Of a DNA stretch of 47,447 nt, positions 4,091 to 42,404 are shown piece by piece; position 1 is the stretch's first letter, and each line of letters begins with the position of its first letter. A model generated the notes under the pieces. That model was not told the DNA's origin, ran no database searches, and was given only the letters and a program-made list of their open reading frames with translations. The position numbers and the translations under genes were made by a program. Source of the stretch: Lishizhenia sp. (lineage in GTDB: Bacteria; Bacteroidota; Bacteroidia; Flavobacteriales_D; Crocinitomicaceae); the NCBI GenBank assembly GCA_007117055.1, contig SKHH01000038.1, positions 1 through 47,447 on the forward strand, written 5' to 3'.

Positions 4091-4125
4091 CAATGAGTTG
4101 ATGGGGAGAGTTTGGTGGATTTTAG
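4091..4125 (-). promoter_or_regulatory. intergenic motif copy (consensus-like)
   Basis: caatgagttgatggggagagtttggtggattttag, 24 nt from ATG 4066. Contains the TAA of 4122..4568. Confidence 0.7.
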
Positions 4126-6386: not shown

Positions 6387-7007
6387 TTAAAATCGTTCCT
6401 GAAGGTTCAGTTCTACAGCAAACTTTTCCATCTTATTTTTGGCTCGATGCAATTGTATTTTTACTGTACCGATTGGTTTCCCAATAATTTCTGCAATTTC
6501 ATCGTATGAAAGTTCTTCAAAATAACGCAATTCAATGATTTTTTTCATTTGAGGAGATAGCATATCTATCAAGTCACGCACCATGTCTTTACGTGCGTTT
6601 ATGTGAATCGCTTCCTCTGGGTTTGGTTCCGAATCTTTCAGGCTCATCATTAATTTATGAGAACGAAGATTATTATCAGCTACTTCATTGGTCAATGGGT
6701 CTTTTAAAGACACAATATCCAGTTTTCTTTTACGTTTCACGTCGATGACGTGGTTGTTAGCGATTTTGAACACCCATGTAGAAAACGCTTTAGTAGGTTG
6801 ATATTGGTCAATGTGAGAGAAAACTTTTTCCCAAACTTGTTGCACAATATCCTCTGCTTCTTCAACTTGTCGCACCATTTTAGAAACAAAAAACAAGAGG
6901 CTACGATTAAATCGTTTTACCAACAGTTGGCTTGCTATGTTTTTTTCGCGTTCTGTGCTGTTTCCTTGGAGAATAGCAACTTGGGCTTCTACATTCAATT
7001 CTTTCAT
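6387..7007 (-). CDS. RNA polymerase sigma factor, sigma-70 family, ECF-like (group 4)
   Basis: Region 2: AEDIVQQVWEKVFSHIDQY...FSTWVFKIANNHVIDVKRKRK. Region 4: LSPQMKKIIELRYFEELSYDEIAEIIGKPIGTVKIQLHRAKNKM. Motif copy 7013..7046 lies just upstream. Confidence 0.9.
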   Translation of the reverse strand: MKELNVEAQVAILQGNSTEREKNIASQLLVKRFNRSLLFFVSKMVRQVEEAEDIVQQVWEKVFSHIDQYQPTKAFSTWVFKIANNHVIDVKRKRKLDIVSLKDPLTNEVADNNLRSHKLMMSLKDSEPNPEEAIHINARKDMVRDLIDMLSPQMKKIIELRYFEELSYDEIAEIIGKPIGTVKIQLHRAKNKMEKFAVELNLQERF

Positions 7008-8324: not shown

Positions 8325-8396
8325 TGCGCGGTGGAGAAGTGGTATCTCGTTAGGTTCATATTCTAAAGTTCGGCGGTTCGAATCCGTCCTGCGCTA
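8325..8396 (+). tRNA. tRNA with CAU anticodon (Met or lysidine-Ile)
   Basis: Hand-folded cloverleaf. D stem gaga/tctc; anticodon stem ttagg/tctaa; loop ttCATat; T arm ggcgg-ttcgaat-ccgtc; acceptor tgcgcgg/ctgcgct with a U1.U72 mismatch. Confidence 0.7.
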
Positions 8397-8516
8397 CGAA
8401 GTCAAAAGACAAAAAAAGAAGTAATGAACTACGTTATTAGCATGATTGAACAGGAACGTGAAGAGGAAGCTCTTCTGTCTGGTCGTGCTATGTAATTAAT
8501 TTAAGATTTACAGAGA

Positions 8517-8545
8517 AGCTCGACCAAGTTGGTCGGGCTTTTTTG
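8517..8545 (+). terminator. rho-independent terminator (plus strand)
   Basis: agctcgaccaa/ttggtcgggct hairpin followed by T6. Confidence 0.6.
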
Positions 8546-8558
8546 TTGCCGTTAATAT

Positions 8559-8630
8559 GCTGCAGTAGCTTAAAGGTAGAGTCGGAGTTTTTCAAACTCT
8601 TGGGTGTGGGTTCGATTCCCATCTGCAGTA
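8559..8630 (+). tRNA. tRNA, anticodon UUC (reads Glu GAA), non-canonical body
   Basis: Acceptor gctgcag/ctgcagt; D arm gctt-aaaggta-gagt; anticodon arm ggagt-ttTTCaa-actct; T arm gtggg-ttcgatt-cccat. Confidence 0.7.
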
Positions 8631-8647
8631 CTAAATTTGTTATTTTA

Positions 8648-8721
8648 CGCCCCATCGTCTAGTTGGCCTAGGACGGTGCCCTTTCACGGCATTAACACGG
8701 GTTCGAATCCCGTTGGGGTGA
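8648..8721 (+). tRNA. tRNA-Glu (UUC), canonical bacterial Glu-type body
   Basis: cgcccca-tc-gtct-agttggccta-ggac-g-gtgcc-ctTTCac-ggcat-taac-acggg-ttcgaat-cccgt-tggggtg-a. Closely resembles the E. coli tRNA-Glu layout. Confidence 0.85.
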
Positions 8722-8731
8722 CTTATTAAAA

Positions 8732-8803
8732 GCTGCAGTAGCTTAAAGGTAGAGTCCTTCCTTCTCACGGAAGTGGGTGACGGTTCGAATCCGTTCTGCA
8801 GTT
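8732..8803 (+). tRNA. tRNA, anticodon CUC (reads Glu GAG), paralogue of 8559..8630
   Basis: Same acceptor and D arm as 8559..8630. Anticodon arm cttcc-ttCTCac-ggaag; T arm gacgg-ttcgaat-ccgtt. Confidence 0.7.
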
Positions 8804-9172
8804 CTATTCTTGCAGTTCATCTGCATTTACAAGAACGGTGTCCAAATCTAATATTGGAAGGCGGTCAATTTGAATAATACTAATTTCAAAAATTCCTGCG
8901 TTTTCTAGGAATACTTGCAAAGAACCGCTGATGTGTCGAATTGCGCTGATGTGTCGAATTGCAAGGTCTGCAAAATTGAAATCGCAAGCGGAGTTTTCCC
9001 ATGCTTCTTTTCCTTCTGGGGTTTTCTTTACCCAGTTGGTAAGAGTTGTTTTTAGGGAGTTAACGACAGAATTGGCATCTTCATGTTGAGATGATACTTC
9101 ACAAGTGTATATCATTATAACGTTTTCTTCTGAATTTCGTCGTTCTGCGATAAAGGAAATCTCTTTTGCCAT
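8804..9172 (-). CDS. hypothetical protein with in-frame 18-bp tandem duplication
   Basis: ORF track. AIRHISAIRHIS is encoded by the perfect repeat 8927..8962. Motif about 9194 upstream. Confidence 0.7.
   Translation of the reverse strand: MAKEISFIAERRNSEENVIMIYTCEVSSQHEDANSVVNSLKTTLTNWVKKTPEGKEAWENSACDFNFADLAIRHISAIRHISGSLQVFLENAGIFEISIIQIDRLPILDLDTVLVNADELQE
8927..8962. repeat. perfect 18-bp tandem duplication (2 copies)
   Basis: gctgatgtgtcgaattgc occurs twice, at 8927..8944 and 8945..8962. Confidence 0.95.
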
Positions 9173-11278: not shown

Positions 11279-11378
11279 TTAATTTAGTATTAAAACCAGT
11301 ACTACACTCGTCCGTTATCGGTAAGTTTCCTCGCTAACAAATGATAAACAACATTAAACGATTGTTTATCATCAGCCG

Positions 11379-11576
11379 TTATAGGGCATTTATAAACCCC
11401 AAATAAACAGACCACCAATAAACTTGAAAAAAGAAACTTGGATAAAACACCCACCATTGAGTAGGTGAAAGCCATCTGTAGCTTGGTAACGAAAGCGTGT
11501 TCTTGCCAAACATTGTTACTATCACCAACAAGTTTAATATGGTAATTCCGAATGTGAAAATAAATAAGTATGTCAT
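11379..11576 (-). CDS. small membrane protein (2 predicted TM segments)
   Basis: ORF track. Hydrophobic segments LFIFTFGITILNLLVIVTMF and WWVFYPSFFFQVYWWSVYLGFI. Confidence 0.55.
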   Translation of the reverse strand: MTYLFIFTFGITILNLLVIVTMFGKNTLSLPSYRWLSPTQWWVFYPSFFFQVYWWSVYLGFINAL

Positions 11577-14090: not shown

Positions 14091-14300
14091 TCAATGAGTA
14101 TCAAGGGAGAGTTTGGTGGGTTTTGCTTCCTTCACAATGAAGGGAGAGGAAACTTTTACTTCATAATTATGAATTCGCTTGATTTCCTGGGCCACCCATT
14201 CAGCTTTTGGTTGCATTAACCGACAAAACCCTTTTTCTATCACTTCAACGCCAATGGAATACATGGCGTTAAAATGAATACGTTGTTTAATTGATGTCAT
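14091..14300 (-). CDS. hypothetical protein
   Basis: ORF track. The last 10 codons (KPTKLSLDTH) are the motif read in frame. Confidence 0.6.
   Translation of the reverse strand: MTSIKQRIHFNAMYSIGVEVIEKGFCRLMQPKAEWVAQEIKRIHNYEVKVSSPFIVKEAKPTKLSLDTH
14092..14125 (-). promoter_or_regulatory. intergenic motif copy (tandem with 13996..14030, no ORF between)
   Basis: caatgagtatcaagggagagtttggtgggttttg. Embedded in the 3' end of ORF 14091..14300. Confidence 0.6.
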
Positions 14301-18644: not shown

Positions 18645-19421
18645 TTAATATTCTCGATTTTTTGTAATAAAGTCACGAATAATATTCTTATCTTCATAAG
18701 ATAATGAAATCTTACAACATCCTTTATAGTCGCCTACTGACATCATCTCAAAATAGGGTGGCAATTCAGGGAGGTTTTCAGTATTCATTTGCTTGAGTTC
18801 AGCAATAAACTCAGTACGAAGATAAAAGGCTTCTGGAGCGCAGAATTGCACATAATTTCGATATTGCTTTCCTTTCCAATTGACTGTAAACACATTATCT
18901 CCAACGGCTAAATGAAGTCCACGAACCACAAAAGAGGTGGTGTCAGATTTCTTGTAAGGATTGCGGTAAATAAGTCCTTTTTCAATCAAAAGCTCCACGA
19001 GTTCCCTTGTTGGAAAGTGTCTGTAATATTTACTACCCAGTCCGTTAATGGCATATTTCACCAATGGACGAACTTCTTTATCACAACCTTGTCGGCTTTG
19101 TTTACGCGCCCAAGTAAGACGATGATTGTTGATTTTTTGAAGTGCTTCGCTTATCCTTTGACGTTTCTCTTCTGGTAATTTCATATTGAACATGAAACAC
19201 CACACAGAATTTAGTTGTGATGCAATTGGTAAAATATACTCTTGATAGATTTTGGGAGTAATTTTTGTCTTCACCAATTTATTGACAAAGTTTTCTACAT
19301 CTTCAATATCACCTTCAGATGAAAGATTTGATATCTTGGCTGCATATTCCTCTGGAGACATCCCCGACATTGCAGAAGATAAAGTGAGGATAAAATCTAT
19401 TGCTTGTTTGTTGTTTTCCAT
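18645..19421 (-). CDS. hypothetical protein
   Basis: ORF track 258 aa. Motif near 19427 upstream. Confidence 0.75.
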   Translation of the reverse strand: MENNKQAIDFILTLSSAMSGMSPEEYAAKISNLSSEGDIEDVENFVNKLVKTKITPKIYQEYILPIASQLNSVWCFMFNMKLPEEKRQRISEALQKINNHRLTWARKQSRQGCDKEVRPLVKYAINGLGSKYYRHFPTRELVELLIEKGLIYRNPYKKSDTTSFVVRGLHLAVGDNVFTVNWKGKQYRNYVQFCAPEAFYLRTEFIAELKQMNTENLPELPPYFEMMSVGDYKGCCKISLSYEDKNIIRDFITKNREY

Positions 19422-19436
19422 GTTTTAAATGAGTTT

Positions 19437-19781
19437 CTAAAACAAGTTTGGTGGATTTAACTGTTCTTCAAATTTATTAATGTTTGCGTGATATGCTTGA
19501 CAATCAATATCAACCAACATAACGGTTTCATCGGCAACATAAATATTATTTTCACGCCAAATTAAGCCGATTTCTCTGGCTAATTTCTTTGCGGTTGGAA
19601 TAATGTTGCGAAATGTAATTTTTTTTCCATTTGCTAACCTTGCCTTTGGTTTGATAAGACAAATTGAAAAGTTACCAAATTGCCCGTAATCATCAATGTA
19701 GGCATCTTGAACAGGTAATAGTTCTTTTATTTGCTCTACAAACTTTGTAACCTTATCTTTCTGTTCTTGAGTTGTTGCCAT
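19437..19781 (-). CDS. hypothetical protein
   Basis: ORF track. Motif near 19787 upstream. Confidence 0.7.
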   Translation of the reverse strand: MATTQEQKDKVTKFVEQIKELLPVQDAYIDDYGQFGNFSICLIKPKARLANGKKITFRNIIPTAKKLAREIGLIWRENNIYVADETVMLVDIDCQAYHANINKFEEQLNPPNLF

Positions 19782-19830
19782 ATTTTCAATGAGTTCTTAA
19801 AAGAGGTTTGGTGGATTTAACTAGGGAGAC

Positions 19831-20589
19831 TTATGCTGCCTTGTTTTTCTTCTTATTACGATGATATCCCGTTATTCCTTTTTTACGCAACTCTTGAAGT
19901 GCATTGCTTGCCTTAGAACCTGCTGGTTGAGTTCCATGAATTAACTGAGCAAAATTGCCATCAAAATTCCATGCGTGAGAATCGTCTTTATCAATCGGTA
20001 AACCTAATTCCTCAGCTTCTTCTGTGCTATAAACAACCTTTACATTTTTCAAATTGTATTGGTCAATCAATTTATCCATATAACCTCCGTAAGAAGCTGT
20101 TAACTTTAAATTTTGTGGTATATCGTTTAAACGACGAACCCAAAATTTAATGGACTTGGTATATGCGTAAAAAATAATGTTTGGATACATTTTTGCGACC
20201 TCTACCCATGCGTCAAAATAAGATTGAACGAAAAAGTCTCCGCTTGCGTGAATGCGAACTAGACGGCAATATTTATCAATATCTTGTGACTTAATAGAGG
20301 CTAATAAGACCTCTAATTTTCCTTGCACCCCCTTGGCATTACGAAGTGTTTCAAAGTTGCGTTTGTGAAGCTTGTAGGCATTTGTGCTACGGATTTCCAT
20401 TGAAGCCGCATAGCAACGAAATTCCGTAAATTCACCGTCTTGAATACGGTTTCCATTTTCAGTCTCTACAACCTGAGATTTGCAATCTTTAGCTCCAGGA
20501 CAAGCTGTTCCTGCAACCAATGAAAGTATTGCTATTCGGTTGTTTAACTTTGCATTTCCAAAAGTAAAGTGTACTGTTTTCTGTTCCAT
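19831..20589 (-). CDS. GP88-like protein (tentative family call; start corrected)
   Basis: ATG MEQKTVHFTFGNAKL at 20589. LVAGTACPGAKDCKS...FRCYAAS...RIHASGDFFVQSYFDAWVEVAKMYPNIIFYAYTKS resembles my recollection of the phage GP88 domain. Confidence 0.6.
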   Translation of the reverse strand: MEQKTVHFTFGNAKLNNRIAILSLVAGTACPGAKDCKSQVVETENGNRIQDGEFTEFRCYAASMEIRSTNAYKLHKRNFETLRNAKGVQGKLEVLLASIKSQDIDKYCRLVRIHASGDFFVQSYFDAWVEVAKMYPNIIFYAYTKSIKFWVRRLNDIPQNLKLTASYGGYMDKLIDQYNLKNVKVVYSTEEAEELGLPIDKDDSHAWNFDGNFAQLIHGTQPAGSKASNALQELRKKGITGYHRNKKKNKAA

Positions 20590-28776: not shown

Positions 28777-28810
28777 TTTATTAAGATTTTTGTAAACAAC
28801 GTGCCATAAA

Positions 28811-28906
28811 AGTAGTGGGGCTGTAAACGACTTTAACGTTTGGTTCTGGTCTTATTGATATTGCCTGAATGCATCAGTTTGATTTTCACTAAAATGCCCC
28901 ACTACT
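28811..28906 (-). other. ORF-free structured leader closed by a perfect 11-bp helix
   Basis: agtagtggggc (28811..28821) pairs with gccccactact (28896..28906). 74-nt interior with aaacg/cgttt and ctga/tcag hairpins. Confidence 0.4.
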
Positions 28907-29010
28907 CATATGCTTTGTTTTTGGATATAATAAATTACAGAAGTATTAAAGTTAGTGTTTCACAGAAATTACTCTGTCTATTTTTTCTTTCCTTTTCTGC
29001 TCCATGTCTT

Positions 29011-29164: not shown

Positions 29165-29371
29165 TTATGTCTTAATGGCATCACCATTCATTTTTACAAA
29201 ATCAAGTTGTAATCCATCTCTGAACCTAATTAAGTAACCTGCTCGCCAATCAAGACCTCTACTTTCAATTTGGCTATCAATGTATTCTTCAATTTCTTTC
29301 TTTGTTGCAAATTGTCTAAATACTTTACCTTCTTTAGTTATTGCTTTATGTCTATAAATTCGTTTCATCAT
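29165..29371 (-). CDS. hypothetical protein (start corrected)
   Basis: ATG MMKRIYRHKA at 29371. Flanked by the perfect 10-bp inverted repeat GTTATGTGCC/GGCACATAAC. Confidence 0.55.
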   Translation of the reverse strand: MMKRIYRHKAITKEGKVFRQFATKKEIEEYIDSQIESRGLDWRAGYLIRFRDGLQLDFVKMNGDAIKT

Positions 29372-29476
29372 TCTAAAATTAACGGCACATAACAAGGTAT
29401 ATATGTTATACGCCAATGAAGTGTTGTACTTAATTTCAAAGTTTACGGTTAGGCGTACAACACATATACCCGACCG

Positions 29477-29722
29477 TTAGCTGTAATTATAAAACCTACT
29501 TTCAAGCAATCTTTCCCATTCAGGTTTAGCCATTTCAGTTTCATATATTTCTTTCAGCATTTCATTTGTTATTTTCAAAGTAGGTTCTTTAAGTCTATAA
29601 TGAACCCGAATTTTTTCTCGTTGCGAATAACCAAGTTTTTTCATAAACCAATAACTACAGTTAACAACAGGTATGGTTAATGCCTGTTCTGTGCTATTTT
29701 CTAAGTTTTGTTTTTTTTTCAT
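29477..29722 (-). CDS. hypothetical protein
   Basis: ORF track. Confidence 0.6.
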   Translation of the reverse strand: MKKKQNLENSTEQALTIPVVNCSYWFMKKLGYSQREKIRVHYRLKEPTLKITNEMLKEIYETEMAKPEWERLLESRFYNYS

Positions 29723-29783
29723 CTGTATTTATATTTTGAAAGTTTTGTGATTCTAATCAGGCACTAACCATACCTGCGGAACG

Positions 29784-30029
29784 TTATGCTCCATTTACAT
29801 ACCTACATACAAATATCTTTAGTTTTCTTATTTCTAAATGAAACGTCCAGATACATTCTATTTCTCTCCAGCTCCAATATTGCTTTTTCTTTCTCCAATT
29901 ATCGAAAACTAAACCAGTATATCCATCATACTCTTTTTGCCAATAAATTTTACCAGAAAAACGGAGCATAACAATGTGTAAAATCCATTGCTTATACTCC
30001 TTATATTGTTTTGTCGTAATTCGTATCAT
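29784..30029 (-). CDS. hypothetical protein (start uncertain)
   Basis: ORF track. An internal ATG at 29969 lies inside the GGAGCATAAC element. C-terminus ..NGA* is shared with 30088..30330. Confidence 0.45.
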   Translation of the reverse strand: MIRITTKQYKEYKQWILHIVMLRFSGKIYWQKEYDGYTGLVFDNWRKKKQYWSWREIECIWTFHLEIRKLKIFVCRYVNGA

Positions 30030-30087
30030 AGTGCTTTTAATTTAATTAGTGGTTAATTGATAAACGCAACGTATCTTACACTCATCG

Positions 30088-30330
30088 TTATGCACCATTA
30101 GACCTCATCTCTTCAGCATACTTTATCAACTCTTTGCCAATAATTTCAGCTTCTTCACAACTCATATAAAGCATAAAGCTTTTTTTGTTGTCTTCTTCTA
30201 TGCTGTGCATTACCAACCCTGTTTTTTCAGGATTTGGTTCGATTATTACAGACTGCTCTGCATCTGCTGTAAATATCTTAATTTGTTTCCAGCTCATTTT
30301 TTTTAGTTTTAAATTAACGGTGCTTTTCAT
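30088..30330 (-). CDS. hypothetical protein (alternative start 30297)
   Basis: ORF track. The second ATG (MSWKQIKIF, 30297) sits 16 nt after the GCACCGTTAA element. Confidence 0.55.
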   Translation of the reverse strand: MKSTVNLKLKKMSWKQIKIFTADAEQSVIIEPNPEKTGLVMHSIEEDNKKSFMLYMSCEEAEIIGKELIKYAEEMRSNGA

Positions 30331-36995: not shown

Positions 36996-37030
36996 GCTTT
37001 CAATGAGTTTAAAGGGAGAGTTTGGTGGGT

Positions 37031-40809: not shown

Positions 40810-41193
40810 TTACATTTGACCTAATCCAGAACTAGAAAATGGGTGGTCATCATCATATGGGTCAACATCGTAAATGGCTTCACCAAATTCATCATAAGCA
40901 ACTCCATGAATAATCTCATAGCCCTCAGAGGTGAGCCTTGGTCTTACAGAGCCTCTTTCTTCCATTTGACGTGCTTTGTAAGAAGCATTTGCGGGTGAAA
41001 TGCGTGTTGTGTTGTTGCGTTTTTTTGGGTCTACCGTGTTCCAGTATTTATCTTTACATACGGTTTTGGGTTGGCTTTTACAAAAAGCTTGTTGGTAATG
41101 CGTTTTAATGAATTGCGTACCACATGAAGGGCAAATGCAAGTTTCACCTACATTGCTTTTTTTGTTTAACTGGTATCTGGCTTTCATTTTCAT
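40810..41193 (-). CDS. zinc-ribbon protein
   Basis: CICPSCGTQF...FCKSQPKTVCKDKYW Cys pairs. Motif 41199..41233 upstream. Confidence 0.7.
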   Translation of the reverse strand: MKMKARYQLNKKSNVGETCICPSCGTQFIKTHYQQAFCKSQPKTVCKDKYWNTVDPKKRNNTTRISPANASYKARQMEERGSVRPRLTSEGYEIIHGVAYDEFGEAIYDVDPYDDDHPFSSSGLGQM

Positions 41194-41206
41194 GCCTACA
41201 ATGAGT

Positions 41207-41515
41207 TTAAGGTTTGAGTTCGGTGGAATTAAAAATTACAATTCCCAAAATTTTTTCCAACTTCAAACCTAAAGAAAAAGAGAAATCAAATTTTCCTTTC
41301 CTCAAACTCTTTACATCTTCAACAGAAATATCTAGTTGTTCAGCAAGTTCCTCAATGCTTAGTCCTTTTTCTTCCATAGCTATGATAATATCAATAGCAA
41401 TGACACCTAAAAGACGAAACATCTGGCGGTTTTTTTTGCGCTTTCTCATATTCTGAGCCGTCTTGCTGTCATGAGAAACAAGTGCATCAAATTTTTTCCT
41501 AGTTTTCTTGTCCAT
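41207..41515 (-). CDS. XRE-family helix-turn-helix protein
   Basis: MEEKGLSIEELAEQLDISVEDVKSLRKGKFDFSFSLGLKLEKILG. Confidence 0.7.
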   Translation of the reverse strand: MDKKTRKKFDALVSHDSKTAQNMRKRKKNRQMFRLLGVIAIDIIIAMEEKGLSIEELAEQLDISVEDVKSLRKGKFDFSFSLGLKLEKILGIVIFNSTELKP

Positions 41516-41552
41516 ATCTGCTGAAGGCCTCTTTTTTTGTTCGTTACACTAT

Positions 41553-41736
41553 CAATGAGTTGTAAAACATTAAAACGATTTTACAACAATGTATAAGAGT
41601 AATGTAGCTTCACTTGGTTTTACCCATCTTTTGCAGGTTATTAAGGTTGTTTACCATCCGAAAGGGTTATCTCCTCTTTTTACCGCTACACTACTCTTAT
41701 ACTTTGCCGTTGCTGGTTTGAGTTTGGTGGCTTTAG
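41553..41736 (-). promoter_or_regulatory. intergenic motif copy split by a 146-bp insertion
   Basis: Block 2 caatgagttg (41553..41562) and the remainder ctggtttgagtttggtggctttag (41713..41736) equal the intact copy 41994..42028. gttg is repeated at both junctions. Confidence 0.7.
41563..41708 (-). other. 146-bp structured insertion (candidate RNA element or miniature mobile element)
   Basis: 18-bp helix 41591..41608 / 41685..41702 (single mismatch is G.U only on the minus sense). 9-bp hairpin 41559..41587. Confidence 0.45.
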
Positions 41737-41969
41737 GAAAGGGTTTTATCCCACACTTCTTTTGTTTTTTCTAACACCAAAGGTGATGCTCCAAAGTCTT
41801 GCAATGTCTTAATCCAGAACTTTACAGCACGTTTCTTATTAAGCGCACCACCGCCTGTAAATTTGTCCATTGAAATAAATGGCTTGAGAATGATTTCCTC
41901 TTGTTGATTGGTAACGTTTTGAGGAATACCCAAGTCCTTAAGATTAGGTGCTTTTGAATTGAAGTCCAT
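41733..41969 (-). CDS. hypothetical protein
   Basis: ORF track. Intact motif 41994..42028 upstream. Confidence 0.65.
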   Translation of the reverse strand: MDFNSKAPNLKDLGIPQNVTNQQEEIILKPFISMDKFTGGGALNKKRAVKFWIKTLQDFGASPLVLEKTKEVWDKTLS

Positions 41970-41993
41970 TTCTGTATTTGTTTGTTACACTAT

Positions 41994-42028
41994 CAATGAG
42001 TTGCTGGTTTGAGTTTGGTGGCTTTAAT
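41994..42028 (-). promoter_or_regulatory. intergenic motif copy
   Basis: caatgagttgctggtttgagtttggtggctttaat. Confidence 0.65.
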
Positions 42029-42251
42029 AAGCCATGTAACAATAATGAGTTATGCCTTTCTCCGTTTTGTGGTAGTGGCATTTTCCAAGCATTCCATCTG
42101 GAATAAAGTCTTGCATTCTGCTTCTAGCCTTGTCGTCAGCCTCTTGTTGGCTATCAGCTTGAACAATAATATTTAAACGAGCAACAGGTTGACCATCCAA
42201 ATCAAAACTCTTTTTGCTCATGTAGTGACGTACTGTTTCTTTCAATGCCAT
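42024..42251 (-). CDS. hypothetical protein
   Basis: ORF track. Motif 42274..42308 upstream. Confidence 0.65.
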   Translation of the reverse strand: MALKETVRHYMSKKSFDLDGQPVARLNIIVQADSQQEADDKARSRMQDFIPDGMLGKCHYHKTEKGITHYCYMAY

Positions 42252-42273
42252 AGTTGTTTGTTTGCTTCATAGA

Positions 42274-42308
42274 CAATGAGTGCCAAGGGAGAGGTTTGGT
42301 GAATTTAA
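42274..42308 (-). promoter_or_regulatory. intergenic motif copy
   Basis: caatgagtgccaagggagaggtttggtgaatttaa. Confidence 0.65.
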
Positions 42309-42331
42309 GAATCATAAAAAATATGTACAAT

Positions 42332-42363
42332 AAAATCCACCAAACCTGACAAATATACTCATT
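42332..42363 (+). promoter_or_regulatory. intergenic motif copy in antisense (plus) orientation
   Basis: aaaatccaccaaacctgacaaatatactcatt, back to back (23 nt) with 42274..42308. Faces terminator 42405..42440. Confidence 0.55.
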
Positions 42364-42404
42364 ACTTGTGAGAAAATCTATCTTATAGGGAGAGATATAT
42401 TAAC

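Follow-up and report, generated by a model that had tools for sequence, protein, structure and literature searches.

A candidate structured-RNA cassette of a family found in marine phages divides a promoter-like motif upstream of an HTH gene in a Lishizhenia sp. contig

The insertion and its site

This work concerns a 146-bp insertion (positions 41563-41708) in contig SKHH01000038.1 of Lishizhenia sp. (assembly GCA_007117055.1), analysed over its whole length of 47,447 nucleotides, hereafter the window, where it lies in front of a small helix-turn-helix (HTH) gene and divides one copy of a motif that is repeated throughout the sequence. Nearly all window genes are on the minus strand, which is called the gene strand below. 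The HTH gene (41207-41515, minus strand) encodes 102 amino acids, and its product passes the Pfam HTH_3 threshold borderline (23.2 bits for a cut-off of 23). Upstream of this gene, the 146 bp sit between CAATGAGTTG at 41553-41562 and GTTGCTGGTTTGAGTTTGGTGGCTTTA at 41709-41735, with GTTG (CAAC in gene sense) at both junctions (41559-41562 and 41709-41712), and 44 nt separate the CAAC boundary from the HTH-gene ATG. The next gene upstream (41733-41969, minus strand, 78 amino acids) has its stop codon inside the upstream half of the divided motif.

An intact paralogous motif with its leader (41984-42026, minus strand) lies 290 bp upstream and serves as a proxy for the empty site, the net insert being defined by comparison with it. 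The upstream, -35-like half of the split motif (41709-41735, minus strand, with CCACCAAAC at 41722-41730) is identical to this twin at 27 of 27 positions (42000-42026), while the downstream, -10-like half (AACTCATTG) lies with the start of the leader at 41541-41562 (minus strand), within a stretch of half-motif and leader (41530-41562) that is 91% identical to 41971-42003. As sequence, the empty junction is CCAGCAACTCATTGATAGTGTAACGAAC, and the G in GTAACGAAC is the mark of the HTH leader. Among the 76 copies detected in the window with at most one mismatch per half, the pair 41730/41560 is the sole clean split, its upstream half being an orphan. The original prediction, made from the sequence, had described a motif copy duplicated from the next gene upstream, leader included, and split by 146 bp with GTTG on both sides, and this description is upheld.

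The insert is identical in three independent assemblies, namely the window, a 61-kb contig from ENA that contains it, and two Logan contigs that overlap within a hairpin of the insert. The break between the Logan contigs falls inside this hairpin and does not indicate heterogeneity.

A cassette family of marine Flavobacteriaceae phages

Read in gene sense, the insert and its two boundaries form an ordered series of helices. A 22-nt inverted repeat, 91% complementary and with arms 76 nt apart, provides a closing stem of 18 + 4 bp (5' arm at 41685-41706, 3' arm at 41587-41608, minus strand), which encloses a 76-nt core predicted to fold as a three-way junction (41609-41684, minus strand) and is followed by a hairpin, GUUG-UAAAAUCGUUUUAAUGUUUUA-CAAC (41559-41587, minus strand), that spans the left junction. 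The complete unit, including both CAAC copies, is 154 nt long (41559-41712, minus strand). The gene-sense RNA fold has a free energy of -47.4 kcal/mol (z = -3.27), which none of 200 shuffled sequences equalled, as against z = -1.90 for the plus strand, and it adds three pairs (C-G, G.U, U-A) around a UUUA loop at the hairpin apex. The closing helix and the junction hairpin had both been proposed earlier, and both prove real. The plus-strand open reading frame (ORF) at 41589-41774 does exist, but it runs opposite to nearly every other window gene, in line with its earlier dismissal as spurious.

A BLASTN search of GenBank phages returned one match, the first 26 nt of the insert being identical to an intergenic hairpin of Cellulophaga phage phi39:1. 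The hairpin 21-mer, TAAAACATTAAAACGWTTTTA, was found exactly in at least 120 IMG/VR contigs and in 49 bacterial contigs, nearly all of Flavobacteriaceae (Algibacter, Mariniflexile, Polaribacter, Formosa, Flaviramulus). It belongs to a family of cassettes located between genes in more than 100 viral contigs from phages of marine Flavobacteriaceae. In phage gene sense, a unit of 147-158 nt begins with YAACG, a few bases and GUAUAUGAGUAGUG..., the 5' arm of a closing stem of about 20 bp; it continues with an interior of about 75-85 nt and the 3' arm, ...CAUUACUUAUAUAC, and ends, after a few bases, with UGUUR, the hairpin UAAAAUCGUUUUAAUGUUUUA carrying the invariant apex UCGUUUUAAUG, and YAAC. The window unit has the same boundaries and the same apex (CAACGG ... 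TTG-TAAAATCGTTTTAATGTTTTA-CAAC).

A covariance model, R1, was built on 15 members from other contigs (alignment A1), the window being left out; RNAalifold, run on A1, recovered the hairpin as well as the closing stem and showed compensatory change in 10 pairs. Over its full length (positions 1-154), R1 matched the minus strand of 41559-41712 with 98.9 bits (E ~1e-19), which places the window copy 21st of 132 hits in 100 sources and within the full-length class (29 hits at 82 bits or more, window copy included). Over the 132 hits, 94.5% of cells were paired, versus 78.5% in shuffles and 39-51% in slid controls, and both sides changed in 20 of the 27 pairs, these counts being somewhat inflated in an alignment (A2) that was fitted by the model. 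Judged by sequence and predicted structure, the insert can be assigned to the cassette family as a full-length member.

The structure appears to be selected on the gene strand. In window-plus orientation, 31 distinct long stems contain 493 Watson-Crick pairs, 40 A.C and no G.T, and therefore every stem wobble is a G.U on the coding strand. The single mismatch of the closing helix, noted earlier as a G.U in the gene-sense RNA only, is the sole A/C mismatch of the plus-strand arms and coincides with the G.U column of the family, which is G.U in 14 of 15 aligned members and in 88 of the 105 hits without a gap at that pair. The hairpin stems also covary over 76 distinct versions, with the same strand bias (15 versus 2), and their plus-strand loop, ATTAAAAC, is opposite to phage genes in 155 cases and co-oriented in 11. 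The arm bias (40 versus 0) indicates selection of a single strand rather than double-stranded terminal repeats, and no near-identical copies were found in the sequences searched (listed below), so that a classical miniature inverted-repeat transposable element (MITE) does not fit. The GAAA-looped hairpin reported earlier belongs to a reading of the plus strand, whereas the selected strand is the minus.

A search for further copies and an Rfam scan had been proposed with the original prediction. The former yielded the family members in other phage contigs, though no near-identical copy or empty site; a second near-identical copy was absent from the window, from the additional contig sequence, and from the viral and metagenome contigs. 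The scan matched no family, neither for 41400-41900 (Rfam 15, E up to 10) nor for the sister loci (gathering score, or E up to 1). Literature searches by sequence string returned nothing relevant, and these elements may be present, unlabelled, in a published list of some 10,000 candidate structured RNAs of viruses (PMC10690425). The arms specific to the window were absent from the viral contigs, and in metagenome contigs the search gave only unrelated palindromic tandem repeats: L175 (1300-1700) and L176 (270-730) are chance matches to the arm pattern in a repeat of about 120 bp with one long palindrome per unit (GAGTAGTGTAGCGTATA...TATACGCTACACTACTC).

Variation within the family was also observed. 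Tandem arrays of three hairpins with a period of about 33 nt, in which the stems differ and the loop CATTAAAACG is constant, are present in L018, L037, L054, L065 and L087. Among sister cassettes (L006, L038, L092, L063 and L121, the last about 60-250 nt past the hairpin in gene sense), some hold two or three T-arm-like hairpins (GGUUCGAnUCC) in one closing stem; neither ARAGORN nor Rfam called a tRNA in the T-arm-like cassettes, which may be tRNA-mimic or decoy RNAs.

A conserved core with differing neighbours

The core of the window unit has its closest relative in the cassette of L091, with 87% identity over the core only. A scan with GATAACCCTTTCGGATGG located the core in six more viral contigs, with homologues in L179, L181, L182/L186, L183 and L185; two further matches lie in coding sequence and were discarded as coincidental. 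In alignment A3, which holds six distinct versions of the core, the single-stranded stretches GAUAACCCUUUCGGAUGG, CUGCAAAAGAUGG and CCAAGUGAAGC are highly conserved and the inner helices 2 and 3 are 100% paired, with changes on both sides in 1 of 3 pairs (helix 2) and 3 of 4 (helix 3). One helix alternates between GGU/ACC and GAU/AUC, and the other takes the forms GAGG/CCUU, ACAG/CUGU, GCAA/UGCU and ACAA/UGUU. A 15-codon ORF within the core was rejected: its L091 homologue differs in length and by non-conservative changes, the RNA helices being kept.

In its six other contexts the core has the orientation of the flanking ORFs, comes just past a stop codon and leaves 140-300 nt to the next start, its neighbours being unrelated genes. 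In phage contigs generally, the hairpin lies 20-40 nt past a stop codon, a distance that grows to 120-200 nt where a cargo stem comes between, and in L182 UUUUUU directly follows the closing stem; together, these positions point to a role of the hairpin at the 3' end of an RNA. Compensatory changes and conserved loops mark the core as a conserved RNA, carried by at least six other phage contigs with differing neighbours.

The split motif as a candidate promoter

In gene sense, the repeated motif reads CCACCAAAC-N12-ACTCATTG, or more broadly TTAAAnCCACCAAAC-N11/12-AACTCATTG, and precedes almost every gene of the window. The strict pattern has 37 exact matches where 0.03 are expected, a relaxed pattern gives about 60 copies, and 76 paired copies are present on the gene strand with at most one mismatch per half (76-80 overall). 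Downstream of it comes either an ATG after about 6 nt or an A/C-rich leader of 20-30 nt. Because its upstream box contains AAC, is highly conserved and keeps a constant spacing to a second box, and because it stands immediately before start codons and is present about 76 times, the motif was taken as a promoter for a sigma factor of the extracytoplasmic function (ECF) type. It is likely, from these sequence features, that it is read by an ECF-like sigma factor of the element itself. A candidate reader is the 206-amino-acid product of the gene at 6387-7007 (minus strand; precomputed Pfam Sigma70_r2, Sigma70_r4 and Sigma70_r4_2). The 61-kb contig encodes two such proteins of the sigma-70 family, both ECF-like in having regions 2 and 4 only (no r3), the second at L177 14448-15050 (Sigma70_r2 and r4).

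The density and conservation of the motif are unusual (examples at 4091-4117, 14092-14118 and 37001-37027, minus strand), and many copies have their ATG about 6 nt past CATTG, so that the mRNAs would be leaderless or nearly so. Between 45130 and 46510, three near-identical tandem copies on the minus strand (45155, 45340, 45413) are followed by three on the plus strand (45826, 46135, 46508) and mark a divergent switch in gene orientation.

At the insertion, 150 bp between the boxes plausibly disable the HTH gene's own promoter. If the motif is indeed a promoter, boxes so far apart imply that this promoter is lost and that transcription comes from 41984-42026 through the cassette. The earlier suggestion of a promoter-disabling insertion is therefore plausible, the halves of the motif being separated. 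A host sigma-A promoter within the cassette was also looked for and rejected, as no TTG-N19-TAnnTTTG is present in it.

Origin and fate of the cassette

The best reading of the locus, which we hold with moderate confidence, is that a modular small-RNA cassette has recombined into the element at CAAC, is transcribed by read-through, and splits what is likely an ECF-sigma promoter. Modularity is visible elsewhere in the family: each of three other cassette types is found in two or three contexts whose flanks are unrelated, the block common to the copies ends exactly at GTTR on both sides, and in L185 a junction at CAAC|GG removes the 5' arm. In the window, the ends of the insert coincide exactly with the boundary tetranucleotide of the family, and only CAAC is common to the target. 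An insert that comprises one unit exactly, boundaries included, and has only CAAC in common with its target does not fit random capture. The unit may have entered by cassette exchange at this conserved punctuation, whether site-specific or through microhomology, the latter possibly by double template switching beside hairpins; a single-stranded DNA transposition mechanism would fit as well. GTTG had been compared to a target-site duplication, a status that is less clear now that GTTR/YAAC is found to bound every unit and to pair within the structure, and it could equally be a recombination core or microhomology. The first proposal of a mobile element that targets the motif is accordingly kept in part: the insertion is discrete, foreign, modular and of an evidently mobile class, but targeting is contradicted, since only 1 of about 76-80 copies was hit and the other family modules of the window (11343-11381 and 28.2-30.1 kb) all lie outside the motif.

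Once installed, the cassette, which would have no promoter of its own here, would owe its gene-strand transcription to read-through that starts at the intact motif (41984-42026). Its long closing stem may act as a double-stranded RNA processing site of RNase III type and free a discrete small RNA, whose end the hairpin could protect or define as a 3'-end structure. The HTH gene, deprived of a private promoter, would depend on read-through across the cassette.

Several observations weigh against this reading. No empty site was found in any relative, and all three assemblies with the HTH gene carry the insert; a search of 5.8 billion proteins gave no homologue of the HTH protein. In the viral contigs, neither it nor the SprT protein, both used to look for empty-site relatives, has a relative; comparison of flank pairs in the loci collected gave no occupied/empty pair, and BLASTN of the flanks against GenBank phages gave no match. 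RNA production, RNA processing and promoter loss are all inferred, as are the promoter role of the motif and its reading by an ECF-like sigma factor, which are deduced from the upstream box with its AAC, the number of copies and their position; the pairing counts of A2 carry the inflation mentioned above. A terminator role is not evident, the hairpin being followed by CAACUCAUUG without a U-tract. Folded single-stranded DNA also tolerates G.T pairs, and the strand bias by itself would leave a DNA-level structure possible. Finally, the hairpin 21-mer occurs downstream of host promoters in the opposite sense (see below), which a single RNA-level role such as termination or end protection does not explain.

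Among the alternatives, the cassette could be a cis-acting leader in the 5' untranslated region (UTR) of the HTH gene (an attenuator, a riboswitch-like sensor or a translational gate) rather than a released small RNA. It stands directly upstream of the HTH start, at the 44 nt given above, other family stems of the window enclose start codons or occupy 5' UTRs and begin at the stop of the preceding ORF, and the conserved single-stranded stretches of the core are aptamer-like. The same core, however, precedes unrelated genes in six other contigs, at 140-300 nt from the next start and with a closer tie to the upstream stop, the insertion region shows no alternative terminator/antiterminator pairing and no U-tract, and in L182 the closing stem runs into UUUUUU, which recalls the end of a free-standing RNA gene. 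In the original prediction, a regulatory RNA or attenuator was one option; the structured RNA on the gene strand agrees with the first term, whereas the signature of the second, a G+C-rich stem with a U-tract, is missing, with no terminator-like site in 41000-42400. We consider a cis-acting leader unlikely.

We find it just as unlikely that the unit is a DNA-level mobile element, with hairpins that act in single-stranded DNA and an incidental RNA. It could then be of IS200/IS605 type, that is, a palindrome-associated element that inserts on the 3' side of a tetranucleotide, or an attC-like site bracketed by AAC...GTT. The insertion is indeed precise, with the same tetranucleotide at both ends, every unit has the AAC/GTT bracket, identical cassettes lie in unrelated flanks with breaks exactly at GTTR, the extra CAAC|GG junction of L185 comes with the loss of the 5' arm, and strand-specific tolerance of G.T is also typical of folded single-stranded DNA sites. 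Yet no transposase or integrase was matched in the 20 window proteins scanned or in the precomputed Pfam list of the contig, a search that was not exhaustive; the structures at the two ends differ, the boundaries do not fit the integron core sites GTTRRRY / RYYYAAC, and near-identical sister copies were not found in the window or in the viral and metagenome contigs. Conservation of the core is moreover of RNA type, with compensatory changes and conserved loops, and the units are consistently co-oriented with genes (155 opposite versus 11 same, relative to the plus-strand loop).

Least probable is that an intergenic fragment of another phage arrived by illegitimate recombination with no effect other than inactivation of the HTH promoter: only 4 bp are common to the target, the intergenic grammar of this phage differs (the motif of about 76 copies) and every function of the cassette is so far a predicted one, but the captured piece is exactly one complete unit that scores like home copies with all helices intact, its core is 87% identical to that of L091 with inter-copy differences that keep both inner helices fully paired, the insert is the same in three assemblies, and further family modules are present in the window.

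Hairpin copies in host genomes

Of the 48 copies of the 21-mer examined in bacterial contigs, 17 follow a canonical Bacteroidetes promoter (TTG-N17-22-TAnnTTYG) at a distance of no more than 30 nt, all in the sense that gives the loop CAUUAAAACG; the other sense gives 0 of 48. Phage copies near such a promoter number 1 of 96 and 5 of 96 in the two senses. With opposite senses in host and phage, the hairpin RNAs would be perfectly complementary over 21 nt. In several Flavobacteriaceae chromosomes (L132, L136-L138, L148, L154, L160, L162, L169), the 21-nt hairpin is seen just downstream of a highly conserved promoter block, CTTGACTTTGTAAAAAAAnnnnCTAACTTCGTTTAACG, which is repeated within genomes, precedes diverse genes, including the L19 leader and RNase P RNA regions, and has the sense opposite to that of phages.

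The opposite-sense host copies motivate an antisense hypothesis, in which the cassettes would be a phage RNA system aimed at host transcripts and pairing with them by kissing loops or full duplex. We regard it as improbable. If it were true, highly expressed leaders of the host could be silenced, cleaved or hijacked by phage hairpins, effector or decoy modules would be supplied by the variable cores, of which some have two or three T-arm-like hairpins, and the units may move as transcript-delimited blocks at YAAC.

Other features of the window

The insertion is accompanied by other family modules on the minus strand. A solo family hairpin (11343-11381, R1 22.1 bits) lies directly past a stop codon, with the stem ATGATAAACAA that is also found in L012, L016, L080 and L102. 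Between 28200 and 30100, family-type modules and structured RNAs form a cluster. It includes a second family module with a different conserved RNA core (28810-28925, R1 36.6 bits, 90% identical to L018 and 80% to L120), a stem module that starts with TAACG, of which TAA is the stop codon of the upstream ORF (29362-29479, 41.1 bits), another that also opens with such a TAACG and encloses the start codon of the next ORF (29660-29786, 39.7 bits), and a further one that again begins with TAACG and shares TAA with the upstream stop codon (29947-30090). Within this cluster, at about 28520-28470, a promoter-like motif is followed by ATTG in place of ATG. The embedding of a stop codon in TAACG was considered as a general rule and rejected (11 of 55 cases, versus 7 and 5 in control frames). 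Given these modules, the family belongs to the gene pool of the element, and the copy at 41.6 kb is unusual only for sitting inside the motif.

The 47-kb window has no structural phage genes, and its largest ORF encodes 352 amino acids. Four tRNA genes (Met, and Glu three times) lie on the plus strand at 8325-8804, opposite to essentially all protein genes. Beyond the start of the window, the 61-kb contig (L177, ENA contig k141_777838) ends at 18787-20480 in MORN-, NUDIX- and TonB-dependent-receptor-like genes, where the motif stops; this may reflect integration of the element in a Bacteroidota chromosome or a chimeric 61-kb contig.

Relation to known systems

Promoter-early stem-loop (PeSL) cassettes, which mediate modular shuffling in T4-like phages, combine a terminator with an early promoter, carry protein-gene cargo and are exchanged by homologous recombination between PeSLs (PMC2839356, PMC4122927). 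By analogy, they appear to be the nearest concept to the window cassette. Both are short composite regulatory repeats between small accessory phage genes, the window family may serve, as PeSLs do, as exchange points with unrelated cargo between identical boundaries, and the motif present in about 76 copies among small ORFs resembles a hyperplastic region. By contrast, the cargo in the window family is often a conserved structured RNA in a covarying closing stem, the boundary is a tetranucleotide, and the window insertion, with only 4 bp in common with its target, lands inside a promoter-like motif rather than between cassettes. Morons (promoter-gene-terminator units) are comparable as discrete extra units between otherwise adjacent genes, but in the window unit neither a promoter nor a U-tract terminator can be recognised, the cargo is an RNA, and what would be a promoter is interrupted.

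With MITEs and REPINs, the unit has in common its small size, its non-coding nature, a long inverted repeat (22 nt) and a short junction repeat (4 bp, which is also the conserved boundary of the family). It differs in that the family has no multi-copy, near-identical population and no RAYT or transposase was seen, its arms covary between subfamilies with strand-specific G.U, and its interior is a conserved structured RNA. Integron cassettes offer a closer formal likeness, since in both an imperfect hairpin, with AAC...GTT as its bracket, comes after variable cargo, with strand-specific folding and junctions at GTT. However, the window junctions are GTTGTAA and GTTGCTG and those of the family CGTTATA / CGTTAGC, as opposed to the R'' RYYYAAC and R' GTTRRRY core sites of integrons; the context is a phage one, with no integrase domain in the precomputed Pfam lists and no IntI or attI found, and the apical loop, conserved in the family, is not conserved in attC sites. 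Elements of IS200/IS605 type recall the YAAC junction and the hairpins at the ends; no TnpA was present among the proteins scanned, in a search that was not exhaustive.

At the RNA level, the stems cut by RNase III in rRNA precursors and T7 early mRNAs, together with the small stable RNAs of the T4 tRNA region, are similar in that a flanking stem of about 20 bp encloses a structured RNA within a longer phage transcript; the sequence family is unrelated, and the cleavage site in the window is a predicted one with a compatible stem length. Bacterial Y RNAs (YrlA) also associate a long terminal stem with a variable module, and the T-arm-like hairpins of L006, L038 and L121 recall them, whereas the window core has no T-arm and no Rfam hit was obtained even at E up to 1.

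Portable phage regulatory and RNA cassettes were thus already known, and what is new here is an RNA family as cargo, combined with clean disruption of a putative promoter. The locus offers a natural example in which phage structured-RNA genes would behave as portable cassettes with defined boundaries. The natural pair of split and intact promoter-like motifs, together with R1 and the A3 core alignment, makes RNA function, processing and the proposed sigma-factor promoter directly testable. For the phages of marine Flavobacteriaceae, these data describe a widespread family outside Rfam, with several conserved RNA cores and an invariant hairpin that is also present in hosts in the opposite sense, and they suggest that a cassette landing inside a promoter can rewire a regulator gene.

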